From contig NC_008312.1 in assembly GCF_000014265.1 (NCBI RefSeq), positions 3,210,001 to 3,242,000 on the forward strand: a DNA stretch of 32,000 bases, in the 5' to 3' direction. The translations under genes were made by a program, and so were the position numbers. The notes under the pieces were generated by a model, which had not been told where the DNA came from, ran no database searches, and was given only the letters and a program-made list of their open reading frames with translations. The DNA is from Trichodesmium erythraeum IMS101 (GTDB taxonomy: Bacteria > Cyanobacteriota > Cyanobacteriia > Cyanobacteriales > Microcoleaceae). Shown piece by piece: positions 893-32,000 of the stretch (position 1 is its first letter; the number at the start of each line of letters is the position of its first letter).

Positions 893-1867
893 ATGTCCCA
901 GACTTTCAACCAAGGATACGCTGTTGTTATCGGAGTAGGTGATGATTTGCCGATCACAATTGATGATGCTACTGCCATTGCCAATGTATTGGGTGATTTA
1001 TCTCGTTGCGCCTATCCTACTGATCAAGTGCGTTTACTAACAGGTGAAAAAGCAAACCGTGCCAATGTTCTATCTGCTTTGAGCTGGCTGGCTGAGACCA
1101 CGGGAAAAGATGACACGGCGATCGTTTATTTTTCTGGTCATGGAATTGAAAAACCAGATTATTATTTGATGCCTTATGGTTATAATTTAGAAAATTTGGA
1201 GGGTACAGCTATTCGAGGCGAAACTTTTACGGAGTGTCTGAGAGCTATTAAAACTAAAAAATTACTGGTACTGTTAGACTGCTGCCATGCTGGTGGACAG
1301 GCAGACCCTAAGGGAATTATAAAATCACCTCTACCTCCATCGGCGATCGCTCAGTTGGGGAGCAGTAGTGGTAGGGTTATACTTGCTTCTTCGCGAAAAG
1401 ATGAACTATCTTGGACGGGAAAGCCATACAGTGTTTTTACTGTAGCATTGTTGGAGGCTTTGGCTGGTTATGGCATATTTGAACAAGACGGCTATGCTCG
1501 CGTTTTGGATCTTGCTATGTGGGTCGGACGCAAAGTCCCAGAACGTACAGGGGATGAACAGCACCCTATCATCAAGGTCTCTAATTTAGAGGATAATTTT
1601 GCTTTGGCTTGGTATGCTGGGGGGGAGAAAAGTGTGCGCCCATTGCCAAAATGGGAAACTAATATTCCATCTATTACACCAGGGTTGGATATTGAACAGG
1701 TGGCTACCTGGCGACGGATGTTGGCTAACTATCGTGAAAATCTTCTGTTAATTGAAGAACGCATGAGTGAATTTGTTGAATTTACTGATGTTCCACTAAC
1801 ACTTTTGAAAAATAAACGTCGGATAGAGGCGGAAATAACTAAGTTGGAAAAAAAATTGGGGGGTTAA
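893..1867 (+). CDS. Caspase-like cysteine protease (peptidase C14 fold) with a C-terminal helical adaptor tail
   Basis: ATG start. Caspase/metacaspase-type catalytic dyad motifs YFSGHG (His83) and LLVLLDCCHAGG (Cys131). N-terminal beta-strand YAVVIGVG. The C-terminal ~50 aa (nt 1712-1858) are helical and charged, and homologous to the N-terminus of the next gene. Confidence 0.85.
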   Translation: MSQTFNQGYAVVIGVGDDLPITIDDATAIANVLGDLSRCAYPTDQVRLLTGEKANRANVLSALSWLAETTGKDDTAIVYFSGHGIEKPDYYLMPYGYNLENLEGTAIRGETFTECLRAIKTKKLLVLLDCCHAGGQADPKGIIKSPLPPSAIAQLGSSSGRVILASSRKDELSWTGKPYSVFTVALLEALAGYGIFEQDGYARVLDLAMWVGRKVPERTGDEQHPIIKVSNLEDNFALAWYAGGEKSVRPLPKWETNIPSITPGLDIEQVATWRRMLANYRENLLLIEERMSEFVEFTDVPLTLLKNKRRIEAEITKLEKKLGG

Positions 1868-2171
1868 CTACTGAGGCCGAATAGTTAAAAGTTGGAGAAA
1901 TGTTAATGAATATTGAAAGTATGCTGATTATCTACTATCATAGATTAAGTTTTTTTCAAAAAATTACAGTTTTTTTTCATGGTTTACCAGCTCAAATGAA
2001 GTCAATTAAGACATAGTTAAAAGTTAACAATTACCAATAGAAAAAAAACCATACTTGCCAAATATCTAGGTGTGGTTTGCTGATTTATAGCTTCCCTAAT
2101 GTCATACTTATAACTGGGGAATCAAAGCTTGTATTTTTGAGTAAGAATAACTAAAATGACTATTAAAGTTA

Positions 2172-3308
2172 ATGGATGAGATTGAATCTATTGAAAAACA
2201 AATTAACAATACTAAAAAAAATCTACTTCTGACTGAGGAAAGAATATCTGAATATCCTGAGACTACGAGTGTTCCACTAAAAGACATCAAGAATAAACGA
2301 AAGTTAGAGACTAGGTTAAAAAAATTGAGAGCTCAATTAATAGGTCTTGATAAGCATCGCGATCGCTTAAAAGAACGTCGTGATATTCCTCCTTTACTTC
2401 CTTACTTTGTTAATCGTAGTAGTCAACAAATTGAACTTAAAGAAGCATTAAAAAAATTGTTCAATCATCCTTATTCTCAGCCACTTTTATGTATAATTCA
2501 CGGGGATAAATTACAATGTCATGATACATTTTTTCAATTTCTTGAAAAGGAGTTTCTGCCAAAAATATTCAAGGAAAATACCAATATAAATACAAATAAT
2601 AACTATACAGAATTTATCAAAGAATACCAACTGAAATGGCCGCCGAGAAATACTTCTATAGAAGACTTAAAAAATAGACTAGAACACAATTTAGTAGATA
2701 CGGTACTTGACAATAAATTTGCTTCAAAAGCAGACATAAATGAGTACCTGGCTAGTATTGGAACAGTTATTATTCACACACATTTGCTCACTGCTGATTT
2801 GCAGGAAAATTCATCTATAATTATTGAAAAATTTATAGAATTTTGGCAAGATTGGCCTGAACTTATTCCTAATCAACATCTAATTATTTTCTTGTTTATT
2901 AAATACAAAATTGAACCAAAACAAAACTATTTTCAGAAACTACAGAATTGGATTTTTCAGAATCTATTCAAGAATAATTCCAACACTCGAACCGGGAATT
3001 ATTCTATTCAAAAAAGTATCAAAGATTTGTCTTCCTCTAACTTTACTAAATTTGATAAAATTATCGGGGTAGTTCTGCCCGAACTTCAAGGAATTACGCA
3101 AACAGAAGTAGAAGACTGGGCCCGTAGGGAAGAAGTAAAGAATTATTGGGATGAGGAAAATATTCAAGATTTAATTAATATAATTGAGGATATGTTTGAA
3201 AAATGGGAGAAACAGCAAGCATCTGATACTATGCCTATGTCTAATTTAGCTATAAAATTGACTGATATTTTGATGGGAAAAATACCTATCAAGGAGGATA
3301 CTGCATGA
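2172..3308 (+). CDS. Adaptor protein: N-terminal helical module shared with the caspase tail, plus a P-loop-less STAND-like body (iSTAND/VMAP-like; inferred)
   Basis: 378-aa ORF. Its stop overlaps the MoxR start (ATGA at 3305-3308). Residues 8-56 align without gaps to caspase residues 274-322. The segment LPYFVNRSSQQIELKEALKK..PLLCIIHGDKLQCHDTFFQFL has the strand-loop-helix layout of a STAND NTPase, but no GxxxxGK[ST]. Confidence 0.6.
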   Translation: MDEIESIEKQINNTKKNLLLTEERISEYPETTSVPLKDIKNKRKLETRLKKLRAQLIGLDKHRDRLKERRDIPPLLPYFVNRSSQQIELKEALKKLFNHPYSQPLLCIIHGDKLQCHDTFFQFLEKEFLPKIFKENTNINTNNNYTEFIKEYQLKWPPRNTSIEDLKNRLEHNLVDTVLDNKFASKADINEYLASIGTVIIHTHLLTADLQENSSIIIEKFIEFWQDWPELIPNQHLIIFLFIKYKIEPKQNYFQKLQNWIFQNLFKNNSNTRTGNYSIQKSIKDLSSSNFTKFDKIIGVVLPELQGITQTEVEDWARREEVKNYWDEENIQDLINIIEDMFEKWEKQQASDTMPMSNLAIKLTDILMGKIPIKEDTA

Positions 3309-4297
3309 ATTTTCCATTTTACTTTGGTGACGGAAAACGGAAACCAAATAATACACCAGCTACTCTACCTGTGTCGCGACGAGCCGAATTTATCAAACCA
3401 GAAAATTATTTGGCAGATCCTGGTCTTCGCGATGCCTGCAACGTTGCTTTACTCTTGGGTCAACCCTTATTACTTACTGGAGAACCCGGTACTGGCAAGA
3501 CTTTGTTCTCTTATAGTCTAGCCTGGGAATTGGGTTTTGACGAACCACTGAAGTTTGAAACCAAGTCTACCAGCACTGCCCGGGATTTATTTTACAGCTA
3601 TGACTCCTTGAAACAATTTCAAGATGCCCAAAACAGTATATTAGACAGAAAACCTCTAGACTATCTGACATACAATGCTTTGGGTCAAGCCATCTTGCTC
3701 ACTAAAGAGCCCTCTGAAATTGAGAACTTTGTACCTCCAGATTTTTTTCACCCTGGTAAAAGACGCTCTATCGTTCTCATTGACGAAGTAGATAAAGCAT
3801 CCCGTGATTTTCCTAATGATATCCTCAACGAATTGGAGTATCTATACTTTCGGGTCCGAGAACTGGGCAATATCAAGATTGAAGCTAACTCCAAACTACA
3901 GCCTATAGTCGTCATTACCAGCAACTCTGAGAAAGACCTTCCGGATGCATTTTTGCGGCGTTGTGTTTACTACAATATTCCTTTTCCACAAAAAGAGCGC
4001 CTTGAGAATATTGTTACCAATAGACTAGGTTTGTACTCTGCTGGTAGTAGTGACTTTCTCCAGGACGCTCTAGATATTTTTTTTCAGCTACGAAAAAGCG
4101 GCTTGCGGAAGAAACCGACTACTTCTGAACTTTTGGGTTGGATGATAGCGCTCCAAGAAATTTCAGGCGGTGCAGAAAACCCCCTGGTTCAGTCTGAGCT
4201 GGCTCTGCAAACCTTGAGTAATTTGATTAAAACTGCTGAGGATCAAGATAAAGCTAAGGAGATAATGAAGCAATGGGTAAAAAGTCGCCAAAGTTAA
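3305..4297 (+). CDS. MoxR-like AAA+ ATPase (AAA_5 type)
   Basis: Walker A LLLTGEPGTGKT, Walker B IVLIDEVDKA, sensor/arginine region DAFLRRC. About one third identical by eye to the second MoxR-like ORF at 28692-29666. Translationally coupled to both neighbouring genes. Confidence 0.85.
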   Translation: MNFPFYFGDGKRKPNNTPATLPVSRRAEFIKPENYLADPGLRDACNVALLLGQPLLLTGEPGTGKTLFSYSLAWELGFDEPLKFETKSTSTARDLFYSYDSLKQFQDAQNSILDRKPLDYLTYNALGQAILLTKEPSEIENFVPPDFFHPGKRRSIVLIDEVDKASRDFPNDILNELEYLYFRVRELGNIKIEANSKLQPIVVITSNSEKDLPDAFLRRCVYYNIPFPQKERLENIVTNRLGLYSAGSSDFLQDALDIFFQLRKSGLRKKPTTSELLGWMIALQEISGGAENPLVQSELALQTLSNLIKTAEDQDKAKEIMKQWVKSRQS

Positions 4298-6798
4298 GCC
4301 CAGGGTGGCTAGAACCAGAACAGTTGATGGAATTCATTGATCAGCTTCGTAGAGAATACAAATACAATATCGGTGTATCCCAATATATTGCAGCTCAAGA
4401 GTTGATACTTGCTTTGAGTGCAAAAGGAGAGCAGTTAGAAGAACCCCAGAGGCTTAAAAGTCTTCTCGGTCCCTTGTTATGCAGTTCCCCAGCAGAACAA
4501 GAAGATTTCCAACTACGGTTTGACCAATGGATGGAACGTATGGGTTTTACCGTTCGCGAAGTTATTCATGCTGACGAAAATGCTGAGGCTCTTGAACAGG
4601 AGTTAAAAAAGATGCGGCAGGAATGGCGATGGCTACGGTGGGTACGTTTAGCGATCGCTGTTTTTCTTGTTATTGTTCTAACCAATTTCCTGATACAGGA
4701 TTTTTCGGCTTTAACTTCCCGGATGCAGCAGTTTCCCACTCCAACAGTAGATCCCTTGAAACTATTTCCACCTCAAACTCTTCAAGAATGGCGGACTACA
4801 TTTTTATGGTTAATACTCGTGCCCCCGGTTACATTCTTAGTTTGGAGACTATGGTGGCGTTGGCGTGTGGCTCTATACCTCAACCGTCGTCAGACCAGGC
4901 GGCCTCCTGAAATTCAGCGAGTGTCTATATCAGGGCTAAATGAGGAACTATTTCCCAGAGTTTTGTTTTTGCGCATTGCTCAGGGTTTGAGGCGACGTAT
5001 TCGGGTTCCATCCAATGAACTTGATATTGACAAGACCGTAGAAAAAACTGTCCGGGGAGGAGTTAGGTTTGCCCCAGTATACGGCTACTATAAGCTTCTT
5101 CCTGAATACCTGGTTCTGATCGACCGGGCAAACTACAGCGACCACCAGGCGAGACTTGTCAAGGAAATGATTGCTCAATTAACCGAGAACGAAGTCTTAA
5201 TTATAGGTTACTATTTTGATGGCGACCCCAGGGTATGTTTTCCGGTTACAGGAAAAGGCTCTCCTTGTAAGTTACGGGAAATTTCTTTGAAGTACAGCCA
5301 GCATCGGCTCCTCATCTTCTCTGATGCAGAAGGTTTTTTTAATTCCCTGACTGGGGAACTTGAAGCCTGGCTTGATTTATTTTCAAGTTGGTCTCAGCGG
5401 GCTGTTTTCACTCCCAAACCTTCGGAACATTGGGGATATCAGGAACTGAAATTATCCCGAGAGTTTATTGTTCTACCTGCAACAAATGATGGGTTAATTG
5501 ACTTGATACGGAGCATTGAACATGGAAAACTGCCTTATGTGTCTTCAGAAAAAGGTAGGGCACCTTATCCGGAAGCATTGAGAGTGCGGGGGCGGCGCTG
5601 GGTTGAGCAAGATCCACCTGAGCCATGGTTGCTGACTAATGTCCTAGGGTCTGTCCGAAACTATCTGGGGGAAGCTGGTTACTATTGGCTGAGTGCTTGT
5701 GCTGTATTTCCTGAGTTAAATTGGAATCTCACGGTTTACCTGGGGAATGCTCTTAGTGCTGGTGATGGTCGTTCTTTGCTTCAGGCTTGTCGGCTAACAG
5801 TTCTCGCTCGTTTGCCTTGGTTTCGATATGGTTATATGCCTGACTGGCTGCGCTTGTGGTTACTTTCTGAGTTACCTCGCCACCAGGAGGATGAGGTTCG
5901 TCAACTGCTTAGAAGTTTCTTGGTGGCAAAACCTGATGAGCAAGGCTCAGTTGGAAGATGGCAATTGGAAATTGCTCGGCAATACAGCAATGTTGTCTCT
6001 AGGTTGGTGCAACCACTTCTCCGCTTATTTTCTGGGGAAGCTCCTGAGGATAGTCCTCTGCGGGATTATATTTTTCAGGAGTTTATGGCAGGTCGTAAGG
6101 GACTCGCAGTGAGAATGCCGGAAGAGTTACGGGAGGAACTCCGTCGCAAATATTCACAACAAGTAGGATGGTGGTTTTGGTTTCAGTGGGTGTTGGCAAA
6201 TAGTGTGGGTTTGTTTGTGGGTTTGTTTGTGGGTTTGTTTGTGGGTGGACGGGTTGACAATATTATGGTTAGTTTTCGTATTGCTGTTTTCGGTACTGTT
6301 TTCGGTGCTGTTGTGGGATCACTCCAGTGGTGGGTACTTAGAAAACGACTTTCCCAGGCTAGATGGTGGATACTGGCAACTGCCTTGGCATCAGCTATAC
6401 TATTCTCTACAGCAGAAGTTATGTTGAATGCTGTAAGGGACGTTGTGAGCAATACTGTGATTCAGGTTGTTGTTATATCTTCTGTGGTGGGACTTGTTAT
6501 CGGATCAGCTCAATGGTTGGTTCTCAGAAAACAACTTTCTCAATCTCACTGGTGGATACTGGCAAGTGTTTTAGGAATAACTGCTACGCTCTTTGCTATT
6601 GTTTATTCTTCGCTCTTTGCTATTGTTTATTCTTCGCTCTTTGCTATTGTTTATTCTTCAAGGTTCGAGCTGGGTCTGCTTAAGACTTTTATATCCTTCC
6701 TGAGCATTTTCGGCATTATATACGGAGTAATCACTGGATTTGCCTTAGTTTGGCTGCTGCGACAACCGGGCAATTCTGTCATCAACAATAAAAAGTAA
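4273..6798 (+). CDS. Large membrane protein, predicted MoxR partner: N-terminal helical domain, 2 TM helices, CoxE-type vWA-like domain with degenerate MIDAS, C-terminal multi-TM repeat domain
   Basis: 841-aa ORF overlapping the MoxR stop by 25 nt (alternative ATG at 4327). LRRRIRVPSNELDIDKTVEKTVRGG..(20 aa)..YLVLIDRANYSD (nt 5017-5142) mimics the CoxE-type vWA lead-in and beta1 strand, but DxSxS is replaced by DRANY. LLIFSDAEG (5308-5331) resembles the vWA 'llTDG' strand. Hydrophobic helices near aa 118-140, 175-200 and 630-830. Confidence 0.6.
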   Translation: MGKKSPKLSPGWLEPEQLMEFIDQLRREYKYNIGVSQYIAAQELILALSAKGEQLEEPQRLKSLLGPLLCSSPAEQEDFQLRFDQWMERMGFTVREVIHADENAEALEQELKKMRQEWRWLRWVRLAIAVFLVIVLTNFLIQDFSALTSRMQQFPTPTVDPLKLFPPQTLQEWRTTFLWLILVPPVTFLVWRLWWRWRVALYLNRRQTRRPPEIQRVSISGLNEELFPRVLFLRIAQGLRRRIRVPSNELDIDKTVEKTVRGGVRFAPVYGYYKLLPEYLVLIDRANYSDHQARLVKEMIAQLTENEVLIIGYYFDGDPRVCFPVTGKGSPCKLREISLKYSQHRLLIFSDAEGFFNSLTGELEAWLDLFSSWSQRAVFTPKPSEHWGYQELKLSREFIVLPATNDGLIDLIRSIEHGKLPYVSSEKGRAPYPEALRVRGRRWVEQDPPEPWLLTNVLGSVRNYLGEAGYYWLSACAVFPELNWNLTVYLGNALSAGDGRSLLQACRLTVLARLPWFRYGYMPDWLRLWLLSELPRHQEDEVRQLLRSFLVAKPDEQGSVGRWQLEIARQYSNVVSRLVQPLLRLFSGEAPEDSPLRDYIFQEFMAGRKGLAVRMPEELREELRRKYSQQVGWWFWFQWVLANSVGLFVGLFVGLFVGGRVDNIMVSFRIAVFGTVFGAVVGSLQWWVLRKRLSQARWWILATALASAILFSTAEVMLNAVRDVVSNTVIQVVVISSVVGLVIGSAQWLVLRKQLSQSHWWILASVLGITATLFAIVYSSLFAIVYSSLFAIVYSSRFELGLLKTFISFLSIFGIIYGVITGFALVWLLRQPGNSVINNKK
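6205..6246 (+). repeat. Perfect in-frame 12-bp tandem repeat (gtgggtttgttt x3.5) encoding (GLFV)3 inside a TM segment
   Basis: Read directly: units at 6205-6216, 6217-6228 and 6229-6240, plus a partial unit at 6241-6246. Confidence 0.95.
6587..6658 (+). repeat. Perfect in-frame 24-bp tandem repeat (cgctctttgctattgtttattctt x3) encoding (LFAIVYSS)3 inside a TM segment
   Basis: Read directly: units at 6587-6610, 6611-6634 and 6635-6658, all identical. Confidence 0.95.
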
Positions 6799-19984: not shown

Positions 19985-20479
19985 ATGAGTTTACTAAATA
20001 AGGTATTTGAAGCTTACAATGGACATCGGGTTATGTTTTCACAACCTGAAGCAATAGCTGCAATTGCAGCGTCTGCAATTGCTTCAGATGGTTATCTTTT
20101 AGAACAAGAAACAGAGCTGGTTATAACACTTTTATCTCAAATGGAAGTATTTAAAGGCTATTCAGAAAAACAAATTACGAATATGCTTAATAGGTTGTTA
20201 AGTACACTCAGCGTCAAAGGAATTAATAATGTAGTAGCGATAGCTAATGATTCACTACATCCGGAGTACAAAGAAGCAGTTTTTATGTTAGCTACTGAAA
20301 TAATTTTAGTAGATGGGGTTTTATGTGGTAAAGAACAAGCGTTTTTAATTGATTTGTTTCAGGTATTGGAAATCTCTTCAGAAAGGGCTTCACAAATTTT
20401 TACCTCTAAATCAGAGGCCTATCGGGTTACTAATAAGAAATCTAAAAACTATAGAATTAATCAAGGTTCTCTTAAGTAG
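19985..20479 (+). CDS. TerB-like (tellurite-resistance TerB family) small protein
   Basis: Two helical halves, each with the TerB-type pattern A..ASDG.L...E / E.ILVDG.L...E..FL..L...L.I. Size matches the conserved cyanobacterial TerB-family proteins. Confidence 0.55.
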   Translation: MSLLNKVFEAYNGHRVMFSQPEAIAAIAASAIASDGYLLEQETELVITLLSQMEVFKGYSEKQITNMLNRLLSTLSVKGINNVVAIANDSLHPEYKEAVFMLATEIILVDGVLCGKEQAFLIDLFQVLEISSERASQIFTSKSEAYRVTNKKSKNYRINQGSLK

Positions 20480-20556: not shown

Positions 20557-21741
20557 TTATTTACATGAAATAATTTTTTCATAGGCTTGAATGGTTTGTG
20601 TGGCGATCGCTTGCCAACTATAATTATTTTTCGCTAACTCTTGAGCATTCAAACCCCGGCGTTTTCTCTCTGCTTCATCCTGCAAAGCTAATTTCATTAA
20701 AGCAGCCATGTCTTCTGTTTTGCAACCACCAACCCAACCTGCTTCTGCATTTGCTACATCTTGATAAATATAAACTTGGTCTGAAATCACTACGGGGGTA
20801 CCTGCTATCATAGCCTCTGCTACTGCAATACCAAAGTTTTCATAATAAGAAGGTAGTACAAATAAATCAGCAATTCTTAATAAACTTGTCTTTATTTCCC
20901 CTGTAACAAACCCCATTATTTTGGTAAACTTAGCAATAGGTGAAGCCTTTATTTGTGAGTAAATTTGTGCCTCATAATTAGGATCTTGAGGATTTGCACC
21001 TGCTAAGATAAATTGAAAATCTACCCCTTGTGCTAACAATTTTTCTAAAGCAGGTAATAATAAATCTAGTCCTTTTTTTGGTTCAATGCGAGACATAAAT
21101 AAAATTATGGGATGTTTCACTTCTACTCCTTGAGATCGGAGACTATTAACTAAATTTTCATCTTGAATATTCTCTAGAGTATTGACTCCATTGGGAATTA
21201 CTAAGTCTTTTGTAGATAAGCCAAATCTTTCGGAAACTTTTGCCTCTTGTGTTGTGGTAAAATGAAGGGCAGCAGCATGAGCAATATTCCGCTTTTCTAA
21301 GAGAGAAACATAAATTTTTTTGAGTTGTTTTTTCTTGCGTAGATCAGCGGGGTCTAAGGTTCCTAATGGTCTTAAAATATAGGGTAAGTTATTGGTTCTA
21401 GCAACAGTTGCAGCTATGGTTGTTACTGGTGAAAAAAGAGCATGAATATGAGCTAAATCAAATTCAGTAGCGTGTTCATTTAACCATTGTAATAATTGTA
21501 GAGAAAATTTATAACGACGAAACGGAGAACAAGGAAAATAACGAATTTGATAACCATTTTGTTTGACAGGTTTATTGATAGGAACATCTAAGGGTGGCTG
21601 ACCAGTGTCTCCATTAGAATTTGTGGTGAGAATGGTAACATCTATGTTCTGAGTGGCAAGAGCGGTAGAAAGTCCTATAACCATTTGACTCGGACCGCCA
21701 TAAACAAGAGATATAGATGGTAATATTTGTACTATTCGCAT
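20557..21741 (-). CDS. Glycosyltransferase, GT4 (group 1) family
   Basis: GT-B architecture: N-terminal MRIVQILPS..YGGP, C-terminal R.EPKKG.D.LL and E-x7-E region PSYYENFGIAVAEAMIAGTPVV. Confidence 0.85.
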   Translation of the reverse strand: MRIVQILPSISLVYGGPSQMVIGLSTALATQNIDVTILTTNSNGDTGQPPLDVPINKPVKQNGYQIRYFPCSPFRRYKFSLQLLQWLNEHATEFDLAHIHALFSPVTTIAATVARTNNLPYILRPLGTLDPADLRKKKQLKKIYVSLLEKRNIAHAAALHFTTTQEAKVSERFGLSTKDLVIPNGVNTLENIQDENLVNSLRSQGVEVKHPIILFMSRIEPKKGLDLLLPALEKLLAQGVDFQFILAGANPQDPNYEAQIYSQIKASPIAKFTKIMGFVTGEIKTSLLRIADLFVLPSYYENFGIAVAEAMIAGTPVVISDQVYIYQDVANAEAGWVGGCKTEDMAALMKLALQDEAERKRRGLNAQELAKNNYSWQAIATQTIQAYEKIISCK

Positions 21742-22317: not shown

Positions 22318-22565
22318 GTTTATTACTTTGTAGCTTGGCTTGAGGTCACTAAACCCAAAAAAGCTAGATAATACCGCTGCAGCAGGAAATTTCAGGAAAA
22401 AGAAAAACAGGGTACACAGCAAAAGGGGAAAGGATAAAAGGTTTATTACTTTGTAGTTTGGGTTGAGTTCGCCAAACCCAACAAAGATAGATAATACTGT
22501 CGCTGCAGGAAATTTCAGGAAAAAGAAAAACAGGGTAAAGGGCTGAAGGGGAAAAGAGAAAAGGG
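22318..22565 (-). repeat. Two tandem ~124-bp units (22318-22440, 22441-22565) directly 3' of the stand-alone FGS gene; a partial third copy lies 3' of the 892-aa gene (about 23916-23968)
   Basis: Direct alignment: both units start gtttattactttgtag and share ggaaatttcaggaaaaagaaaaacagggta. They are roughly 80-85% identical by eye. On the sense (minus) strand each unit starts with a pyrimidine-rich tract cccttttc.cttttcccctt and contains a ttgggtt..aacccaa hairpin. Confidence 0.85.
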
Positions 22566-22697
22566 TTAAAGAGTTCTCCCGCCGTCGCAGACTACACGAA
22601 AACCGATAACGTCGTAGTGGACGTCGCGCCCAGCAGAGTTGTAGCGAATCGCAGAACGGCAATCATTAGGAATGTTGACCCAGGAACCGCCCCGCAG
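22566..22697 (-). other. Candidate DGR variable region (VR-B), including the stop codon
   Basis: See the DGR finding. Gapless 132-nt alignment with 23969-24100, with mismatches concentrated in codon positions 1-2 of NNY codons. Confidence 0.6.
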
Positions 22698-23411
22698 CGG
22701 TGAACGTTTTTTATTTCCATTTAGCCAAACACTGCCATCTGTAGGAGCATTTTCATAATTATCATGCCACTCATCAGCACACCATTCCCAGACATTCCCG
22801 TGCATATCGCTCAACCCAAAAGAATTAGCTACTTTAAAATAACCTACAGGTGTAGTTTCCTGACGATATTCTCCTTTGAGTCCTCTGCCGTAAGAACCTT
22901 CATCGCCTGTCCCGTCATAGTTGGCTAAGTCTGTAGTAATAGTTTCTCCAAAATGAAAGGGAGTTGTAGTTCCAGCACGACAGGCATATTCCCATTCAGC
23001 TTCCCTTGGTAGTCTATAATTTCTTCGAGTTAGTTTTGAAAGTCGTTGGCAGAATTCTACTGCTTCGTACCAATTCACTCGCTCTACTGGTCTTTGCCAT
23101 CTATCTATATCTTGGTACGGTTTTTTAAAGTAAGATGGATCTGGGTCTAAATCTTGTTTTTCTTTCAGGTCTGCTCGGGAGGCGATCGCTCTCCACTGTC
23201 CTTGAGTAACAGGATAACGGCCCATGAGAAACTCGGAGATAGTTACATTATGTTGGGGTCTTTCATTATTTCTACTTCCTTCTTCAGATTTTGGTGCGCC
23301 CATTGTAAAGGTGCCACTAGGAATTAAAAACATTTCCAGAGGCACCTCAGCATATTCTCTGTAACCTCGAATTTTTTGTTTTTGACGTTTTATGATAGGT
23401 GTTGTCGCCAT
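22566..23411 (-). CDS. Stand-alone FGE-sulfatase (SUMF1/EgtB/PvdO-type, FGS) domain protein
   Basis: 281 aa. Motifs IPSGTFTMG, RPQH.V....F.MG.YPVTQGQW, YRLP.EAEWEYACRAG, HGNVWEWC, LRGGSW, GFRVV. Roughly 75% identical by eye to the C-terminal domain of the 892-aa protein. Confidence 0.9.
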   Translation of the reverse strand: MATTPIIKRQKQKIRGYREYAEVPLEMFLIPSGTFTMGAPKSEEGSRNNERPQHNVTISEFLMGRYPVTQGQWRAIASRADLKEKQDLDPDPSYFKKPYQDIDRWQRPVERVNWYEAVEFCQRLSKLTRRNYRLPREAEWEYACRAGTTTPFHFGETITTDLANYDGTGDEGSYGRGLKGEYRQETTPVGYFKVANSFGLSDMHGNVWEWCADEWHDNYENAPTDGSVWLNGNKKRSPLRGGSWVNIPNDCRSAIRYNSAGRDVHYDVIGFRVVCDGGRTL

Positions 23412-23888
23412 GTAACTACTTTTGCAAATGTTGGGGGGGCTGAAGGAATTTTCAGTTTTACTCTATGTTGCTTAAAGTTTCCTCACCTAATTTTACCTTG
23501 AAGATAATCTTTTTGCAATTTTTTTAGTCTTTTTCTTCCAGGATGGAGATCACTGTTTCTAACTCAAATTGTTTGAGGAAAAACTCTAGAGTCTAGAAAT
23601 ATAGACTTAGGTTTAAATGCTTTTTATACGGTACAGAAATTGTTTGCAAACCTGTACAGAAGAGCAGGGAATTTACTCACCCCCAACCCCGACGTGGAGG
23701 GAAGGTCAAATTATTAGTCGTTATATCTCCGACTATAAATTTATGACTTTTGGGGAATCTTTCAATTATTGGGACATAGTATTTGACTAAATCATAGGTT
23801 TTTTGGACAACTGATAATTCTTTCATTTTTTTTTACTTTAGGGTTTTGTCATTTGTCGAAAATTTAAGACACTTGACACTTGGACATC

Positions 23889-23914
23889 AAAAAAATTTTT
23901 CCCGCTTCGCGGGA
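23889..23914 (-). terminator. Putative intrinsic terminator of the 892-aa gene
   Basis: Minus strand reads tcccgc-gaa-gcggga, followed by aaaa and then ttttttt. This is a 6-bp GC-rich stem (23900-23914) about 55 nt after the stop codon. Confidence 0.5.
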
Positions 23915-23968
23915 GGTAAAGGAAAAAGAAACATAGTGTAAAGGGCAAAAGGGGAAAAGGGAAAAGGG

Positions 23969-24100
23969 TTAAAGAGTTCTCCCGCCATCGCAGACAAGAC
24001 GAAAACCATCATAGCTGACGTGGACGTCGCGCCTAAGATAGCCGCTGCGAACCGCAGAACGGCAATCAATAGGAGAGTTGCACCAAGAACCGCCCCGCAG
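23969..24100 (-). other. Candidate DGR variable region (VR-A), including the stop codon
   Basis: See the DGR finding. Pairs with 22566-22697. Confidence 0.6.
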
Positions 24101-26647
24101 ACGGGTATAACTATCAGTAGAACTGTCTTCGTTACTATCAACCCAAGCGCTTCCATCTGTAGGAGCTCCCACATAGTTATCATGGCTATCATCAGCACAC
24201 CATTCCCACACGTTTCCATGCATATCATATAATCCAAAAGCATTAGCAGGAAATTGGCCTACAGGAGTTGTTTGTTTTTTATATTCTCCTTTGGGCCCAT
24301 CGCCGTAAGTAATATTACCATCATAGTTAACTAACTCAGGTGTTATAGTTTCTCCAAAGTAGAAAGGTGTAGTAGTTCCTGCCCGACAGGCATATTCCCA
24401 TTCTGCTTCACTGGGCAACCTGTACTTTTTTCCAGTTAATTTCGATAGTCTTTTACAAAATTCTACTGCTTTGTACCAACTCACCGTCTCAACTGGCCTT
24501 TGCCATCTATCTATACCTTTATATGGTTTTTTAAAACGAGATGGATCTGGGTTTAGGTCTTCTTTTTCTTTCAGGTCTGTTCGGGAGGCGATCGCTCTCC
24601 ACTGTCCTTGAGTAACGGGATATTTGCCCATAAAAAAGGAAGGGACAGTCACATCATGTTGGGGGCGTTCATCATCATAGCTACCTTCTTCACTTTTAGG
24701 GGAACCCATAGTAAAAGTACCACTAGGAATAGCCACCATTTCTAGACTAACGTTATCTGGAAGGCTTTGAGTAAAGTAAAAAGCTTTATGAATTGTTCTT
24801 TCGACAATTTTACCCAGCCTGTTAACAGTAGGAGTTTCAAAACTCCACTCTTGTAATTCTATTTCAACTTCCTTAGTTTCTTCTTCAAAAACAATAGTAG
24901 CAATTTCAATTTCAGTTTCAAACTCAATTAAATCTTTTATTTCATTAGTAGAACCAGTATTAGAAGCTCTTATTTGATTAGCAAAATAAGCATAAGAACC
25001 CCCTAATTTCTCCAATACTTCTGCCTGAACTTGAGCTAAAGGATAAACCTGTTTAGCTAGCTTATTCTCAGGTTTTGAAGAATCTATCAACAGAGCTTCA
25101 AATTCTTTGGGACTTATTCCCATTTTCTCAGCTAAATAAGAAGATACTTCCTCAATAACATCGGTAATTTCATCAACAGTTAACCCACTCAATAGTTCAT
25201 CCCGCACCCCATCAAAAAACTCAAATTCGATTTCATCTGGATTAATATTAGGGGTGATTTTTTCACTTAAAGGTTTAAATAACCCTCCCATTAATACTTC
25301 TGCCACATGACCTTGGTTGAACTGAGGAAGCATAGTATATTGAATTACTCTAATCACAGGTAAAGTAACAAGAACTGCGGAGAGATGTTCAGCTAGTCTA
25401 ACGGCATTAGGTGAGGCAATTTCTTGAAACCTTTCTACTCTTTCGGTAGCCGTAATTTCTTCTTGAACAAAGTTAGAATAACGATGATTATCAGGCTTAA
25501 TTCCATAACCAACAGACTGATTATTTCCTACTCCCATTAATAATTTTGACCATTCTTCTAAAATATTAGGGTCAAGACAAAGGACGGGTAATTTAAATTC
25601 TCCATCTTGAGAAATTTCTTGTTTTTTTGAACTAGGAATAATAGTTAAATTCTGATTAGAAGTAAGACGAACAGAAGCATTTAATTTTAAAGACTTTTGT
25701 TGACCAAGATTAGTGCGGAGCCACAAACGTTCTGGTAGAAGCTGCAATAAATTTACCATCCCTTTTCGCCCCCACTCCTGCAAAAGAGTATAGGTTTCTG
25801 GGCGAGACCAAACAGAAGAAACTAGATCGCTTACTAATAGAATTAAAGTTTTTCCACTGGTAGCCCCAATAAATTCTGGAGAGTAGGGACGCATCTGAGG
25901 ATCATCGTAGTGGAAAATTTCAATCCTTTGGTTTTGAGAGGATAAAATCAAAAATAGTATAAATTCAGGAGATACCCTAACAATAAGTTTAAACAACAAT
26001 TCCTGATGTAATAGTTGAGAAGAATTAAATTTTAATCCCCTAGTTTCAGTATGACGAAAAATCCCCAAACTTTGGAGAAATTTCCTCAACTCTTTAATAG
26101 TTTGTTTCCAAATTACGAGGGAGTTATTTACTTCTATAACCAATACTAAATCTAGCCAACGACGGGTTAAAGTTGGTTGTTTAATGGGCATCCAAATCTT
26201 TTGTTCGACAAAAAAATCAATAGTTTTAGCTTCGTTTAATTCCTGTTCTGTTGAGGATGGAAATTTTCGGCGTAAAGATTTTAAAGCAATACCAAGCTCC
26301 TGTTTATTGGGAATAGCTGGAGCATCGGGAACTTGTAGAGGGTAACGTTCCTTTTTATTATTGTCTGTTTTAGGTAAATATTTATCAGCAGCAGCTTTCG
26401 GATAAAGATCTAAATTTGTTTTTGCTGGAAGTTCAGGAATATTAACTTTTAAATTTCGTCTATTTTTCTCTGAGTAAATTTGATTGTTTGATTCAGATCC
26501 TTGAGCATCTTTTTTATCAGTTTCTAATAATTCTAATTCTCCATCCGGCAAAGTTTTTACCCATAACCAAATTATTTCTGCTATTTCTCTAGCAGTTGGG
26601 TCATAATTAGCTTTTTGTAATCCTTCTATGAAGTTAGAAATCGACAT
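23969..26647 (-). CDS. Multidomain protein: N-terminal helical domain, vWA-like domain with degenerate MIDAS, linker, C-terminal FGE-sulfatase (FGS) domain
   Basis: 892 aa. N-terminus FIEGLQKANYDPTAREIAEIIWLWV. ALKSLRRKFPSS.EQELNEAKTIDFF...RRWLDLVLVIEVNNSLVIW and TLILLVSD (about nt 25718-26245) parallel the vWA-like region of the 841-aa protein. The last ~260 aa (about 23972-24750) form a full FGS domain. Confidence 0.8.
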   Translation of the reverse strand: MSISNFIEGLQKANYDPTAREIAEIIWLWVKTLPDGELELLETDKKDAQGSESNNQIYSEKNRRNLKVNIPELPAKTNLDLYPKAAADKYLPKTDNNKKERYPLQVPDAPAIPNKQELGIALKSLRRKFPSSTEQELNEAKTIDFFVEQKIWMPIKQPTLTRRWLDLVLVIEVNNSLVIWKQTIKELRKFLQSLGIFRHTETRGLKFNSSQLLHQELLFKLIVRVSPEFILFLILSSQNQRIEIFHYDDPQMRPYSPEFIGATSGKTLILLVSDLVSSVWSRPETYTLLQEWGRKGMVNLLQLLPERLWLRTNLGQQKSLKLNASVRLTSNQNLTIIPSSKKQEISQDGEFKLPVLCLDPNILEEWSKLLMGVGNNQSVGYGIKPDNHRYSNFVQEEITATERVERFQEIASPNAVRLAEHLSAVLVTLPVIRVIQYTMLPQFNQGHVAEVLMGGLFKPLSEKITPNINPDEIEFEFFDGVRDELLSGLTVDEITDVIEEVSSYLAEKMGISPKEFEALLIDSSKPENKLAKQVYPLAQVQAEVLEKLGGSYAYFANQIRASNTGSTNEIKDLIEFETEIEIATIVFEEETKEVEIELQEWSFETPTVNRLGKIVERTIHKAFYFTQSLPDNVSLEMVAIPSGTFTMGSPKSEEGSYDDERPQHDVTVPSFFMGKYPVTQGQWRAIASRTDLKEKEDLNPDPSRFKKPYKGIDRWQRPVETVSWYKAVEFCKRLSKLTGKKYRLPSEAEWEYACRAGTTTPFYFGETITPELVNYDGNITYGDGPKGEYKKQTTPVGQFPANAFGLYDMHGNVWEWCADDSHDNYVGAPTDGSAWVDSNEDSSTDSYTRLRGGSWCNSPIDCRSAVRSGYLRRDVHVSYDGFRLVCDGGRTL

Positions 26648-26803
26648 TAGGCCTTAGGTTTTAGGTGGCAGGTGTTAGTATGCAGTCCGAGCGCTCCCCC
26701 CTCGAACTGCACCCCAACATTTCTCAATAAGCGTTTTCTTTTTGTTGAAATATTCTTCAGTTGCAGAATGCAAAACCCCTTCTATATATAGCTTTTAATT
26801 AGC

Positions 26804-27550
26804 TTATAACCCCGTGAACATTAACAGACTCCTTTGTTCCCAGAGAAGAAAAAGACCACTGAAAATCACAAAAGCAGTTACTAATTGACGGAACAGCTGA
26901 GGACTAATTTTTTCTAATACTAAATGACCCAACCTATTTCCTGGATAAGCAGCTACTCCTATGAGTATCCCATATCCCAAATAAGGTAAAGTTAAATTAC
27001 CAAAAATTGCATAAGTAATTGCCTTAAAAATATGAACTACCATCCGGTTAACTGCTTGAGTTCCCAATAATTCTTCTTTTTCCAAACCATAATTCAGGTA
27101 AAATGGTGCAAGTAAGGGTCCCATACTACCAATAATTCCTGATAAAAAGGAATAAATAAAACCTGCAGGCAAAAAATACCATGCACGAACAGTAAAAGAT
27201 TTTTCTTGATTTTTAATAATTAAATTTATCCCAGAGATCAATAGAAATAATCCTACTAAAAAACTGAGCCATCTGACAGGAATTTGAGTGAAAATAAAAG
27301 CCCCTAAACAACCACCAAAAATAGCACCAGGTAGTTCCCACAAAATGACAGTCCAGTTAATTTTTTGCCAATAAGCAAAAACACGTTCAGCGTTACCAAG
27401 AATTCCTCCAGTCGTAATGACTGGTGGAATAGCTATAGTTCCTAAAAATAAACCTACTATTGGCATTAAGAGAAAGGAACTACCCCCACCTGCTAGGTTG
27501 CTGACAAACCATCCAACCATACTTGCTAATGCTAACCAGAGATTGGTCAT
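26804..27550 (-). CDS. TauE/SafE (DUF81, TSUP) family anion-exporter-like membrane protein
   Basis: 248 aa, about 7-8 hydrophobic helices, two-fold internal symmetry. Glycine-rich first helix with GGGSSFLLMPIV, typical of the family. Confidence 0.75.
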   Translation of the reverse strand: MTNLWLALASMVGWFVSNLAGGGSSFLLMPIVGLFLGTIAIPPVITTGGILGNAERVFAYWQKINWTVILWELPGAIFGGCLGAFIFTQIPVRWLSFLVGLFLLISGINLIIKNQEKSFTVRAWYFLPAGFIYSFLSGIIGSMGPLLAPFYLNYGLEKEELLGTQAVNRMVVHIFKAITYAIFGNLTLPYLGYGILIGVAAYPGNRLGHLVLEKISPQLFRQLVTAFVIFSGLFLLWEQRSLLMFTGL

Positions 27551-27752
27551 ATTACTTGATTAAGTTATAATTTTTTACTATAGTTCCTTTTTAGCTTAAA
27601 TTTCTGAATTTTAAATATCAACTAAAATTCAGAAATTATCTTTAGAATTTGCCCATAGAAACATTTAGTTAATTTAGTAGTTTCTAAAGAACAAATCTCA
27701 ACAAAATTAATTCAGAAAAAAATTTACCGTCCTCCCTGTATCAGACAGTAAG

Positions 27753-28223
27753 CTATTCATAAAATAATCCTTCTATTGGCACACCATCTTCATGTTTATT
27801 TTCCTTAGATTTTCCTGGTAATGAATTACCATCAACACCTATACGATGAACTGGAAGTTTGTCTTTTTCTGCGCCTACCCGTAACAAGACAAGAGGTTCA
27901 TCTCCACAACTTTGAAACTTATAAAAGCATCCTCTGGGAAGCATAATACCTTGATTTATAGAAAAGACACCAACTTCACCATCTTTGCCAAAAAATCTGG
28001 CTTTTCCTGCTAAAACAATAAAAGTATGATCCTCTCCTGGATGAGAGTGCAAAACATTTTCTCCTCCTTGAGCGTAACATTTAATTCTCACGCTCATTAA
28101 ATCAGTTTTCGCAATAGTATAGTCGCTCCGGCCTTTACTCAAAAGCTGGGTTTTAAGTTGAAAAACTTGTGGTTCTAGACTTTGATTGGAGGATTTTTCT
28201 ATGGTTTCTTGATTAGCAATCAT
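27753..28223 (-). CDS. Cupin-domain protein
   Basis: Cupin motif 1 G-x5-HxH-x3,4-E (GGENVLHSHPGEDH) followed by a beta-rich region with a second motif-like segment (G..P.G..Y.F). 156 aa. Confidence 0.7.
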   Translation of the reverse strand: MIANQETIEKSSNQSLEPQVFQLKTQLLSKGRSDYTIAKTDLMSVRIKCYAQGGENVLHSHPGEDHTFIVLAGKARFFGKDGEVGVFSINQGIMLPRGCFYKFQSCGDEPLVLLRVGAEKDKLPVHRIGVDGNSLPGKSKENKHEDGVPIEGLFYE

Positions 28224-28510
28224 AAGAGATTTTTAAAATAAAAATTAATACAAATTCCTAACTATTAATTATACATACCCTGTCCCCAATATCCGAAAAT
28301 ATCCTAGAATATCTTTATAATCATCCAAGAGAGACAAAATTATAACTATAACTTACTTAGACATTATATGAGAATGCAGTTGCTGTTTGTGCCTGGTTAA
28401 TAATTTTTACTTTTTGAAGTGCCTATAAAGTGAGAATTTTTATTCTGGCTCCATCCCAATAAAAGTGGTTTATAAAATTTTTTTGTAGTCAAATAACTTC
28501 CTAAATATTT

Positions 28511-28605
28511 AGGTTTTAGGTGTTAGGTTTTAGGTTTTAGGCGGCAGGTTTTAAGCGGCAGGTTTTAGGCGGCAGGTTTTAGGCGGCAGGTTTTGGGTTT
28601 TAGGT
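28511..28605. repeat. Heptamer tandem array, 13.5 units (AGGTTTT alternating with AGGCGGC/AGGTGTT); STRR-like
   Basis: Read directly: aggtttt aggtgtt aggtttt aggtttt aggcggc aggtttt aagcggc aggtttt aggcggc aggtttt aggcggc aggtttt gggtttt aggt. A 3-unit copy (aggtttt aggtggc aggtgtt) lies at 26656-26676. Confidence 0.95.
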
Positions 28606-28691
28606 ATCATCATAAATTTGAAATTGGAGGTAAGAGCTTAGTTAGATGAATTTTAAAATTAGAACTTATAACTAATAATTAGTAATTAACT

Positions 28692-31213: not shown

Positions 31214-31999
31214 TTACTGCCGCATAATCCAATAACCCCCCTCTTCCGACGGTTCTAACCGACCTCTTCGCTGCCCTGGGGAAGTATTATTAATTAATAA
31301 GTCCCGTATATCTTCAAGTACCAAACGAGCATCAGCAAAATAACCATGTCCTAATAAAGTTAAATCTATCTTAGAAACTTTTACCGTGTCTATTCCTTCT
31401 ACAACAGTAACAGGGGGGAAAAAACCAGCTCGGCCATGCTGATGAATAAGCGCTGAAGTTGCTAAGGCTTTGTCTTTTGATGATATGTATAATGTAGTTC
31501 GTTCTGCTAATTGATGATATCCTTTAGCTAACTCTTTAAACAAGTCAATATCTACATCTGGAGCGGCTAAAATAATTTGCCCAAAAGCAATATTAGTTAT
31601 TGTTTGAACTTGAGAAATAATTCTTTGGACTGCTCTGAGTAAACCTCGGTTTCCCATACTATGAGCAATAATATGAATTTTCTCAATGTCCGTTTTTTCG
31701 GCTAGGTTGAGTAAAAATTCTGTCATGTACTTTTCGCTGGCTTCAATACTTGCCTCGTCTACCGGATATGCTGATAATTTCCCTTGAGATGGCCAACTAT
31801 AAAAGGCTGTAATTCCTGGCACTTGCAGGTCAAACCCCATTTGTGCGGCTCTAATAGCTGCATCTTCAAAATTGACGTTGTATCCATGAACAAAGACTAA
31901 AGCAGACCTTTCATTTATTTCATGGTCTTTTAATTCTTCGTTGATATTTTCCCAAAATAGTTCTTTTTCCAGAATTTGCAAACTTTGAAAATGTAGTTT
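31214..31999 (-). CDS. DUF900-type alpha/beta-hydrolase (esterase/lipase-like), N-terminus outside the window
   Basis: LVFVHGYNVNFEDAA, SWPSQG, nucleophile elbow IIAHSMGNRG (GxSxG-type), AAPDVD, Y.SSKDKAL. The listed start is a TTG, and the frame stays open to the right window edge. Confidence 0.8.
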   Translation of the reverse strand, partial: KLHFQSLQILEKELFWENINEELKDHEINERSALVFVHGYNVNFEDAAIRAAQMGFDLQVPGITAFYSWPSQGKLSAYPVDEASIEASEKYMTEFLLNLAEKTDIEKIHIIAHSMGNRGLLRAVQRIISQVQTITNIAFGQIILAAPDVDIDLFKELAKGYHQLAERTTLYISSKDKALATSALIHQHGRAGFFPPVTVVEGIDTVKVSKIDLTLLGHGYFADARLVLEDIRDLLINNTSPGQRRGRLEPSEEGGYWIMRQ

Positions 32000-32000
32000 G

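Follow-up and report, generated by a model that had tools for sequence, protein, structure and literature searches.

In the right-hand part of the Trichodesmium erythraeum IMS101 stretch analysed here (32,000 nucleotides of contig NC_008312.1; hereafter, the window), we found a VMAP-type MoxR–vWA ternary conflict system whose operon was very probably split by a lineage-specific insertion of a cupin–TauE block, which separates the gene of a MoxR-like ATPase from the gene of its sensor protein. The genes of this module all lie on the minus strand, in the order EAD7-CHAT-DUF900, EAD7-VMAP-C, MoxR, Cupin_2, TauE and an 892-codon open reading frame (ORF), which encodes the sensor (Table 1). The initial annotation had pointed out that no vWA gene stands beside this MoxR, and the window indeed lacks MoxR–vWA adjacency: the 892-aa gene begins 2044 nt and two genes after the MoxR stop codon. 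A blastn alignment of the window with the corresponding locus of a close relative (L011) runs from 32000 to 28649 and starts again from 26650, so that 1998 bp of the window (28648..26651) replace 17 nt of the relative. This result bears out the earlier suggestion that an insertion of roughly 1.9 kb divided an ancestral operon.

We examined gene order at this junction in related genomes. The closer relatives, ranked by identity of the sensor protein (L011 and L026, 76–80%; L012, 60%; L028, 32%), have no cupin or TauE gene at the locus. In L011, L026 and L012 the order is CHAT-DUF900, VMAP-C, MoxR and a SAV_2336N gene; in L011 and L026 the first two carry EAD7 and the last is a SAV_2336N-FGS fusion. 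L028 keeps this order but lacks a CHAT-DUF900 gene, and no FGS domain is recorded for its SAV_2336N protein. The gap between MoxR and the sensor gene is 69 nt in L011 and in L026 and 4 nt in L012, and the two genes overlap by 4 nt in L028. A scan of metagenome contigs with an N-terminal alignment of the sensor family yielded 80 loci that were kept. A MoxR homolog is the next gene upstream of the sensor on the same strand in 78 of these loci, the other two contigs having too little upstream sequence, and most of the estimated gaps are shorter than 100 nt. None contains a cupin or TauE homolog. MoxR is therefore followed directly by the sensor gene where cupin and TauE are absent, and the possibility raised at the outset that relatives always carry these two genes here is contradicted by their presence in 0 of 84 related loci. 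Interruption of the MoxR–sensor junction is rare, since merely two of the 80 metagenome loci (L050 and L055) have genes between the pair. The extra genes encode an AAA_15/AAA_21 ATPase and a PIN-domain protein in L050 (2441–5019) and a Uma2-family protein in L055 (4323–5852), and each locus has an unannotated protein of ~225 aa straight after MoxR.

The insert was found in Trichodesmium contigs only. The complete MoxR-to-sensor interval is seen in the window, which is identical (100%) to contig JAGGDU010000171 of GCA_018457135.1 (L001), in L010 and in L027, a contig of a Trichodesmium lineage with ~89–94% nucleotide identity to the window. T. erythraeum 21-75 (GCA_000963755.3) is 97.9% identical to the window across 10 kb. 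L109 and L111 show TauE and a repeat array (array B, described below) upstream of the sensor gene, L110 shows a hairpin and array B alone, and TauE precedes the sensor gene in every Trichodesmium contig that reaches far enough upstream. Because the insert is absent across many lineages, parsimony makes the Trichodesmium state the derived one, that is, an insertion and not a loss elsewhere.

Two arrays of one heptamer family, CCTAAAA/CCTGCCG on the coding strand, bracket the cupin and TauE genes, as the initial annotation had correctly located and counted. Tandem Repeats Finder (TRF) assigns array A, on the MoxR side, a period of 7 and 14.0 copies, and its core can also be read as the 14-mer AGGTTTTAGGCGGC repeated 4.5 times. 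Array B reads CACCTGC, CACCTAA, AACCTAA and GGCCTA on the coding strand and runs directly into the ATG of the sensor gene; its last unit is altered to GGCCTAA, giving AAGG 8–11 nt upstream of the ATG. Mismatch-tolerant unit searches of the 32-kb window recovered arrays A and B only (7 matches where 0.27 were expected, and 5 where 0.16 were), and no shuffle reached the observed unit-match counts. A regular-expression scan gave two sites per Trichodesmium locus, with no further copies in ~8 kb of extra flank of L001 or in L010. Searching metagenome contigs for exact copies of the repeat returned zero, which says little since L027, a JGI metagenome contig, has the pattern. Heptamer arrays of other sequence are common, and stand beside genes in the window and in Dapis and Okeania. 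To our knowledge, the CCTAAAA/CCTGCCR unit, which is partly a 14-mer, is not among the classical units of short tandemly repeated repetitive (STRR) sequences.

The arrays are unstable, with copy numbers that differ 4- to 5-fold between Trichodesmium lineages. Site B has 4 units in the window, L010 and L109, which form an erythraeum-like clade, and ~14–19 units in L027, L110 (1–124) and L111 (~195–328), which belong to the other clade. In L027, the MoxR stop codon is followed by a matching 80-nt spacer and then by ~285 nt of array A (~40 units), which runs straight into sequence 50 nt upstream of TauE; 910 nt that include the cupin gene are gone. This deletion starts at the edge of the expanded array and ends at a perfect 15-bp hairpin in the cupin–TauE spacer. 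After TauE, L027 has an array of ~120 nt (~17 units; 3479–3601) that leads into the sensor ATG. Eight independent short-read (Logan) contigs with MoxR all stop at 28565 inside array A, which marks the array as an assembly breakpoint. The initial annotation had offered the repeats, as a shared regulatory or recombination site, in place of an insertion. The array-edge deletion in L027 and the variation in copy number make such a site compatible with the insertion and not a rival to it.

The inserted genes have counterparts elsewhere. A genome scan based on TauE found the cupin–TauE pair in L015, L016, L017 and L014 (at a contig end) and TauE alone in L013. These loci come from Dapis, Okeania, a Microcoleaceae metagenome-assembled genome (MAG) and Calothrix rhizosoleniae, and their cupin and TauE genes are 83–90% identical to those of the window (TauE, 83–88%), with homology running from the cupin ATG to the TauE stop codon. 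TauE is followed on the opposite strand by an HMGL-like (homocitrate-synthase-like) gene in L013, L015, L016 and L017 and next by an FmdA-like amidase in L013, L015 and L016; formyltransferase (Fmt), MscS or MsrB genes lie upstream of the pair in some of L013–L017. The cupin/TauE loci in Dapis, Okeania and Microcoleaceae have a housekeeping context and contain no conflict-system genes and no CCTAAAA arrays. Both window genes are intact and under purifying selection, with ratios of non-synonymous to synonymous substitution (dN/dS) of 0.13 for cupin and 0.15–0.26 for TauE (joint range 0.13–0.27). Their synonymous divergence (dS) from Dapis, 0.25–0.37, is in the range of that of MoxR and the sensor gene from L011 and L026 (0.33–0.53), so that relocation of a resident gene pair fits at least as well as recent horizontal transfer. 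No compositional anomaly was seen in the inserted block.

The cupin and/or TauE frames look interrupted in Dapis M229 and Okeania SIO2F4 (L016 6001–6730 and L017 5183–6736; two tblastn pieces each), and a 'Trichodesmium sp.' MAG (L018 187–918) has a stop codon shortly past the TauE start. Several lineages may thus be able to do without the pair. We also considered how the block might have been mobilized. Insertion by an insertion sequence or transposon is not supported, as the block is without transposase, terminal inverted repeats or convincing target duplication. A specific target-site duplication, with the 43 nt left of array A as a decayed sensor start, was rejected (p = 0.59, 0.18, 0.33 and 0.006 against four gene starts).

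The 892-aa protein is very probably the missing third component of the system, as the initial annotation had proposed. Its N-terminal part matches the NCBIfam model SAV_2336_NTERM (NF041121) with 341.4 bits (cutoff 200), and its homologs adjoin MoxR in relatives. Pfam detects FGE-sulfatase alone (residues 636–885, E 1.2e-56), which confirms the FGS domain expected at its C terminus, and Foldseek with the model of the protein returned FGS-domain matches exclusively (PvdO, the T. denticola variable protein TvpA (2y3c) and FGE). For the vWA-like core, an alignment of 78 homologs has the consensus WLDLALVVDESxSM...LILVVSDCVS; position 172 is D in 61/78 and E in 17/78, including the window protein, S176 is kept in 70/78 and D274 in 78/78. 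In the AlphaFold2 (AF2) model, the acidic residues 172 and 274 lie at the ends of predicted strands (165–172 and 267–272, respectively). The vWA component of ternary systems, a six-stranded Rossmannoid fold, is recognised by a pair of conserved aspartates, one ending strand 1 and the other strand 4 (Kaur, Burroughs, Iyer and Aravind 2020, eLife; PMC7159879), and the placing of the modelled 172/274 pair matches this description. The label 'vWA-like' is consistent with these data and with the literature, the fold itself not being independently proven.

The other genes of the right-hand module match the remaining components of such a system, the placing of the ATPase in the MoxR clade being tentative. 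The gene for the CHAT-DUF900 effector extends past the window end, and its copy in L001 is complete (661 aa), with EAD7, CHAT and DUF900. EAD7 is thus present on both the VMAP protein and the CHAT-DUF900 protein, which carry matching effector-associated domains (EADs). The ATPase matches AAA_5, the dynein/MoxR-related family, above its cutoff (Table 1), whereas the bpMoxR model scores it below its cutoff (E 0.0012; 18.4 bits, cutoff 27), and the ATPase is 30% identical to the MoxR of the left-hand module (E 7e-31); the PDB gave no match at E <= 0.01. The evidence supports a complete VMAP-type MoxR–vWA ternary system with an interrupted operon, a disrupted member of the class and not a non-member. 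The VMAP gene is fast-evolving, with dN/dS of 0.63–0.74 against L011 and L026 and dN above dS on few substitutions within Trichodesmium; the dN/dS of MoxR against more distant relatives is 0.15–0.21.

The only other MoxR in the window belongs to the left-hand module (893–6798, plus strand), an iSTAND-type ternary system in which it has iSTAND and 841-aa partners of its own, so we found no separate, unrelated MoxR partner for the 892-aa protein in the window. The 892-aa and 841-aa proteins had been described as sharing one organisation. BLASTP found nothing between them, nor did hhalign with a shallow profile; the 78-sequence profile gave a co-linear alignment with the 841-aa protein over 159 columns (E 0.033), which pairs a pre-domain R..PS..LD...TV motif, the strand-1 'LVLID' and the strand-4 'LLIFSD'. 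At the level of sequence, the shared organisation is suggestive and not proven. The coding region of the C-terminal part of the 841-aa protein, rich in transmembrane (TM) segments, contains perfect in-frame tandem repeats of 24 nt x3 (6587–6659) and 12 nt x3.6 (6204–6246).

Several observations weigh against this interpretation of the locus. The Trichodesmium contigs examined include no insert-free allele, and excision is hypothetical. The 2-kb block has no transposase, no terminal inverted repeats and no clear target duplication. The nearest insert-free relatives have no array at the MoxR–sensor junction; an array may have pre-existed at the target or arrived with the block. Promoter and terminator scans were at background level and uninformative. 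As to the vWA assignment, the full-length AF2 model of the 892-aa protein is poor (mean predicted local distance difference test score (pLDDT) of 52, with 60–70 in the putative vWA core), and a single-sequence structure model was useless (pLDDT 31). Pfam vWA models match 0/78 family members; the best PDB profile matches are integrin alpha-1 I domains at a non-significant E of 0.17, aligned on the strand of the metal ion-dependent adhesion site (MIDAS), and hhalign and hmmsearch against a PDB-validated integrin/vWF (vWA) alignment stayed at noise level. Two further protein searches for homologs returned one 262-aa fragment and nothing usable to deepen the alignment. The MIDAS-like motif of the window protein is E-V-N-N-S, against D-E-S-x-S(-M) in the family consensus, and these E and N changes may weaken metal or peptide binding. 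The E-x-N-x-S variant is common to the insert-free L011, L012 and L026 and is therefore older than the insertion.

Table 1 Features of the window and the evidence for them (positions count from the first letter of the window)
Feature	Position	Strand	Evidence or remark
EAD7-CHAT-DUF900 effector gene, 3' part	31214..32000	-	DUF900 E 3.6e-45; gene extends past window end
EAD7-VMAP-C adaptor (VMAP component), 460 aa	29753..31135	-	PF20028 VMAP-C 60.6 bits (cutoff 27); EAD7 38.5 bits (cutoff 32)
MoxR-like AAA+ ATPase, 324 aa	28692..29666	-	AAA_5 E 1.2e-8, 35.4 bits (cutoff 22)
Remnant of ancestral MoxR–vWA spacer	28649..28691	-	Alignable to 69-nt spacer of L011/L026
Inserted block, 1998 bp	26651..28648	-	Absent from 84 related non-Trichodesmium loci
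Array A, 14 units, heptamer family CCTAAAA/CCTGCCG (coding strand)	28508..28605	-	TRF; MoxR-side junction of insert
Cupin_2 gene, 156 aa, passenger	27753..28223	-	Pfam match; 90% identity to Dapis L015
Perfect 15-bp A/T-rich hairpin, cupin–TauE spacer	27599..27637	-	Inverted repeat; end of L027 cupin deletion
TauE/SafE-family permease gene, 248 aa, passenger	26804..27550	-	Pfam E 4.9e-31
11-bp stem-loop between TauE and array B	26681..26711	-	Centroid fold, z -2.4; one compensatory change in L027
Array B, 4 units of CCTAAAA/CCTGCCG family, ends in sensor start codon	26649..26676	-	
vWA-like (SAV_2336 N-terminal)+FGS gene, 892 aa, third component	23969..26647	-	Domains and synteny
Putative vWA-like alpha/beta core, residues ~160-385	25493..26170	-	E172-x-N-x-S176, S273-D274; family columns, AF2 strands
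FGS (FGE-sulfatase / C-type-lectin fold) domain, residues 636-885	23993..24742	-	Pfam; Foldseek matches
Variable region (VR) of FGS domain	23996..24100	-	Strain comparison
avd remnant (accessory gene of a diversity-generating retroelement, DGR), residues 1-40 only	23707..23826	-	bAvd E 6.7e-5; tblastn vs L011 Avd
DGR reverse transcriptase (RT) remnant, residues 279-322 only	23468..23599	-	tblastn vs L011 RT; blastn 87% identity
Second, stand-alone FGS gene, 281 aa, own VR (about 22590-22700)	22566..23411	-	VR-clustered differences from L010
Left-module caspase gene	893-1867	+	
Left-module iSTAND gene	2172-3308	+	
Left-module MoxR gene	3305-4297	+	
Left-module 841-aa vWA-like/TM protein gene	4273-6798	+	

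The sensor gene shows signs of being in use. Its VR is hypervariable, the last 67 residues being 79–80% identical compared with 99% over the N-terminal 560 aa (P0002 and P0004), and 20/150 nt differ between the window and L010 at this site. The differences follow the pattern LRGGSWxxxPxxCRSAxRxxxxxRDxHxxxxGFR. This hypervariability suggests a gene in use, and decay after the split becomes less likely. No interruption of the 892-codon ORF is seen in the window, L010, L027, L109, L110 or L111, and the N-terminal half of the sensor has a dN/dS of 0.09–0.53 (0.09 against L010). The gene call of GCA_018457135.1 (L001 14130–15698, corresponding to window 23969–25537) shortens this ORF to 522 aa, which hides the SAV_2336/vWA-like half.

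Downstream of the sensor, L011 has intact Avd and RT, followed by a TnpB-like gene and another, short gene for an FGS protein. Avd is also full-length in L110, a contig of the Trichodesmium clade; the window has the avd and RT remnants and the stand-alone FGS gene (Table 1). No template repeat (TR) was found in the window or in L011, and the only TR-like copy in the window is the VR of the second FGS gene. In T. erythraeum, one highly expressed TR, which lies elsewhere in the genome, acts in trans on at least 12 FGE-sulfatase genes, and its activity extends to natural populations (Pfreundt 2014; PMC4143802). The variability of the sensor VR without a local TR or RT fits a DGR acting in trans from elsewhere in the genome. 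A conserved element of ~50 nt lies after both FGS stop codons (23920–23971 and 22517–22568), a third copy (22394–22445) lies inside a 123-nt x2 tandem duplication (22318–22568) downstream of the 281-aa gene, and a GC hairpin (23900–23914) follows the first copy. These elements and the hairpin may be DGR homing or cruciform elements.

Other genes of the window are associated with conflict, encoding a GT4-conflict glycosyltransferase (20557–21741), a TerB-like protein (19985–20479) and a WG-repeat protein (68–550), and in L001, past the window end, a caspase–FGE-sulfatase fusion lies directly upstream of the CHAT gene. PADLOC has no model covering the VMAP-type ternary system, and Rfam and tRNA scans of the window gave zero matches.

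We propose the following history for the locus. The ancestral layout, which relatives still display, is CHAT-DUF900, VMAP, MoxR, vWA-FGS, Avd, RT and FGS, with MoxR and vWA-FGS 0–70 nt apart. In the stem lineage of Trichodesmium, a 2.0-kb cupin–TauE block was very probably placed exactly between the MoxR-proximal spacer and the vWA-FGS start codon, and it would have entered or become fixed through recombination or slippage involving the arrays. A Campbell-type single crossover that joined an array on a circular molecule with one at the target would give the direct-repeat-flanked structure. The passenger genes would stand outside the defence mechanism. Expression of the sensor would persist, probably through read-through or from a site inside the insert, and the sensor would continue to work with MoxR and VMAP, its VR being kept rewritten by a DGR in trans. 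In published accounts of such systems, ligand binding falls to the FGS tip; the vWA module acts with the MoxR hexamer to remodel their complex with VMAP, and EAD7–EAD7 contacts recruit or activate the CHAT/DUF900 effector (PMC7159879, PMC10907252). A broader proposal, in which paired heptamer (STRR-like) arrays are portable recombination sites in Trichodesmium, so that crossover between arrays or slippage moves, trims or excises a block bounded by one array family, and in which the sensor gene was thereby uncoupled from its ATPase and array copy number tunes sensor dosage between lineages through a length-variable leader, seems to us unlikely to hold.

The arrays might instead be primarily cis-regulatory, forming a C/A-rich leader or promoter spacer whose variable length adjusts the expression of cupin and sensor, and not be scars or substrates of recombination. 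We consider this rather unlikely, although several points speak for it: array B ends in the start codon, where it displaces any Shine–Dalgarno region, its length is a variable-number tandem repeat (VNTR) between lineages, heptamer arrays of other sequence likewise adjoin genes in the window, Dapis and Okeania, and an influence on the stability of transcripts or on translational coupling has been suggested for the 7-bp STRR arrays of filamentous cyanobacteria (PMC2670836). However, cis-regulation leaves unexplained why one family sits at exactly both junctions of a block that relatives lack and why the L027 cupin deletion starts at an array edge, and the promoter scan gave nothing above background. 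The two explanations are not mutually exclusive, and a regulatory role could coexist with the insertion. It is very unlikely, in our assessment, that the 892-aa gene became functionally uncoupled from MoxR after the split, as an orphan DGR target or a decaying gene. The distance of 2 kb with two foreign genes, the change of the first Asp of the MIDAS to Glu and of its first Ser to Asn, the degraded local Avd and RT and the truncated call of one gene caller would all fit such a fate, but the ORF is uninterrupted in the window and five Trichodesmium contigs, its N-terminal half has a dN/dS of 0.09 against L010, the MIDAS variant predates the insertion and the VR is still diversifying.

Co-option of cupin and TauE into the conflict system is disfavoured and in our judgement highly improbable; possible roles would be that of a membrane effector or a sulfur-related partnership with the 'sulfatase-modifying' domain. 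In favour of it, cupin and TauE have intact frames, share the strand of the operon and evolve under purifying selection within it, and two of the 80 related loci have other genes between MoxR and sensor. Yet those extra genes are of the toxin–antitoxin (TA)/nuclease type, unrelated to cupin or TauE; the pair is absent from 84/84 non-Trichodesmium loci and stands among housekeeping genes elsewhere; and cupin is dispensable in L027. The FGS domain, moreover, is a DGR-type binding domain here, and the first of the two cysteines aligning with what we take to be the catalytic pair of FGE falls on a hypervariable position. The probability that the locus is a chimeric join made by assembly at the arrays is negligible: array A does break assemblies, as the eight Logan contigs ending at 28565 attest, but the order MoxR, array, (cupin), TauE, array and sensor recurs in independent assemblies (GCA_018457135.1, GCA_000963755.3 and the JGI metagenome contig), and ENA contigs span TauE, array B and the sensor gene. 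The evidence continues to favour a lineage-specific insertion that split MoxR from its sensor gene.

The locus offers a dated and polarised case of a housekeeping gene pair moved into a defence operon, with unstable arrays at both junctions and an array-edge deletion in a second lineage. It is also a concrete case for studying the role of the abundant 7-bp arrays and of the large non-coding fraction of Trichodesmium genomes. Because the operon is interrupted, pipelines and system finders that require MoxR–vWA adjacency would miss the system in Trichodesmium. Furthermore, two FGE-sulfatase genes with DGR-type VRs are placed as sensors of a caspase-like (CHAT) effector system, a context that bears on programmed cell death in blooms of Trichodesmium. 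The accepted view of how VMAP-type systems work is unchanged.

The VMAP ternary system was defined by Kaur 2020 (PMC7159879), where the vWA–FGS fusion is the typical cyanobacterial form. Like those systems, the module described here combines a VMAP-C protein bearing an EAD adaptor with a MoxR-like AAA+ ATPase and a large third protein that ends in an FGS domain; the EAD-linked effector of caspase-like/alpha-beta-hydrolase type and the association with DGRs are likewise shared. It differs in that MoxR and sensor are 2 kb apart, with two housekeeping-type genes between them and flanking heptamer arrays, in that the local DGR is reduced to fragments, and in that the first MIDAS residue is Glu and not Asp. 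The sensor resembles DGR-diversified FGE-sulfatase sensors (PMC4143802; Dore 2024, PMC10907252, on multicellular bacteria) in its C-terminal domain, with ~35 terminal residues that are hypervariable from strain to strain, its conserved 3' flank, the GC hairpin past the stop codon and a second short FGS target nearby; unlike those loci, this one has no TR and no working RT.

The arrays are similar to STRR heptanucleotide repeats, which are summarised in PMC2670836 and whose function in filamentous cyanobacteria is unknown, in being tandem 7-bp units that are intergenic, on the gene strand and variable in copy number, whereas here two arrays of one family mark both junctions of an inserted gene block. 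In common with the classical MoxR–vWA pairs named in PMC7159879 (RavA–ViaA, CoxD–CoxE and the Mg-chelatase BchI–BchD), the AAA+ gene precedes a partner with acidic residues ending the predicted strands 1 and 4. In contrast to them, the pair does not significantly match the sequence of any MoxR or vWA protein of solved structure, and the partner has a hypervariable, presumably ligand-binding domain and would work together with an adaptor and an effector. What is modestly new here is a repeat-bounded housekeeping insert and a variable-length array abutting a start codon. Overall, the locus is not a new kind of system; it represents a known type with an unusual, lineage-specific local rearrangement.

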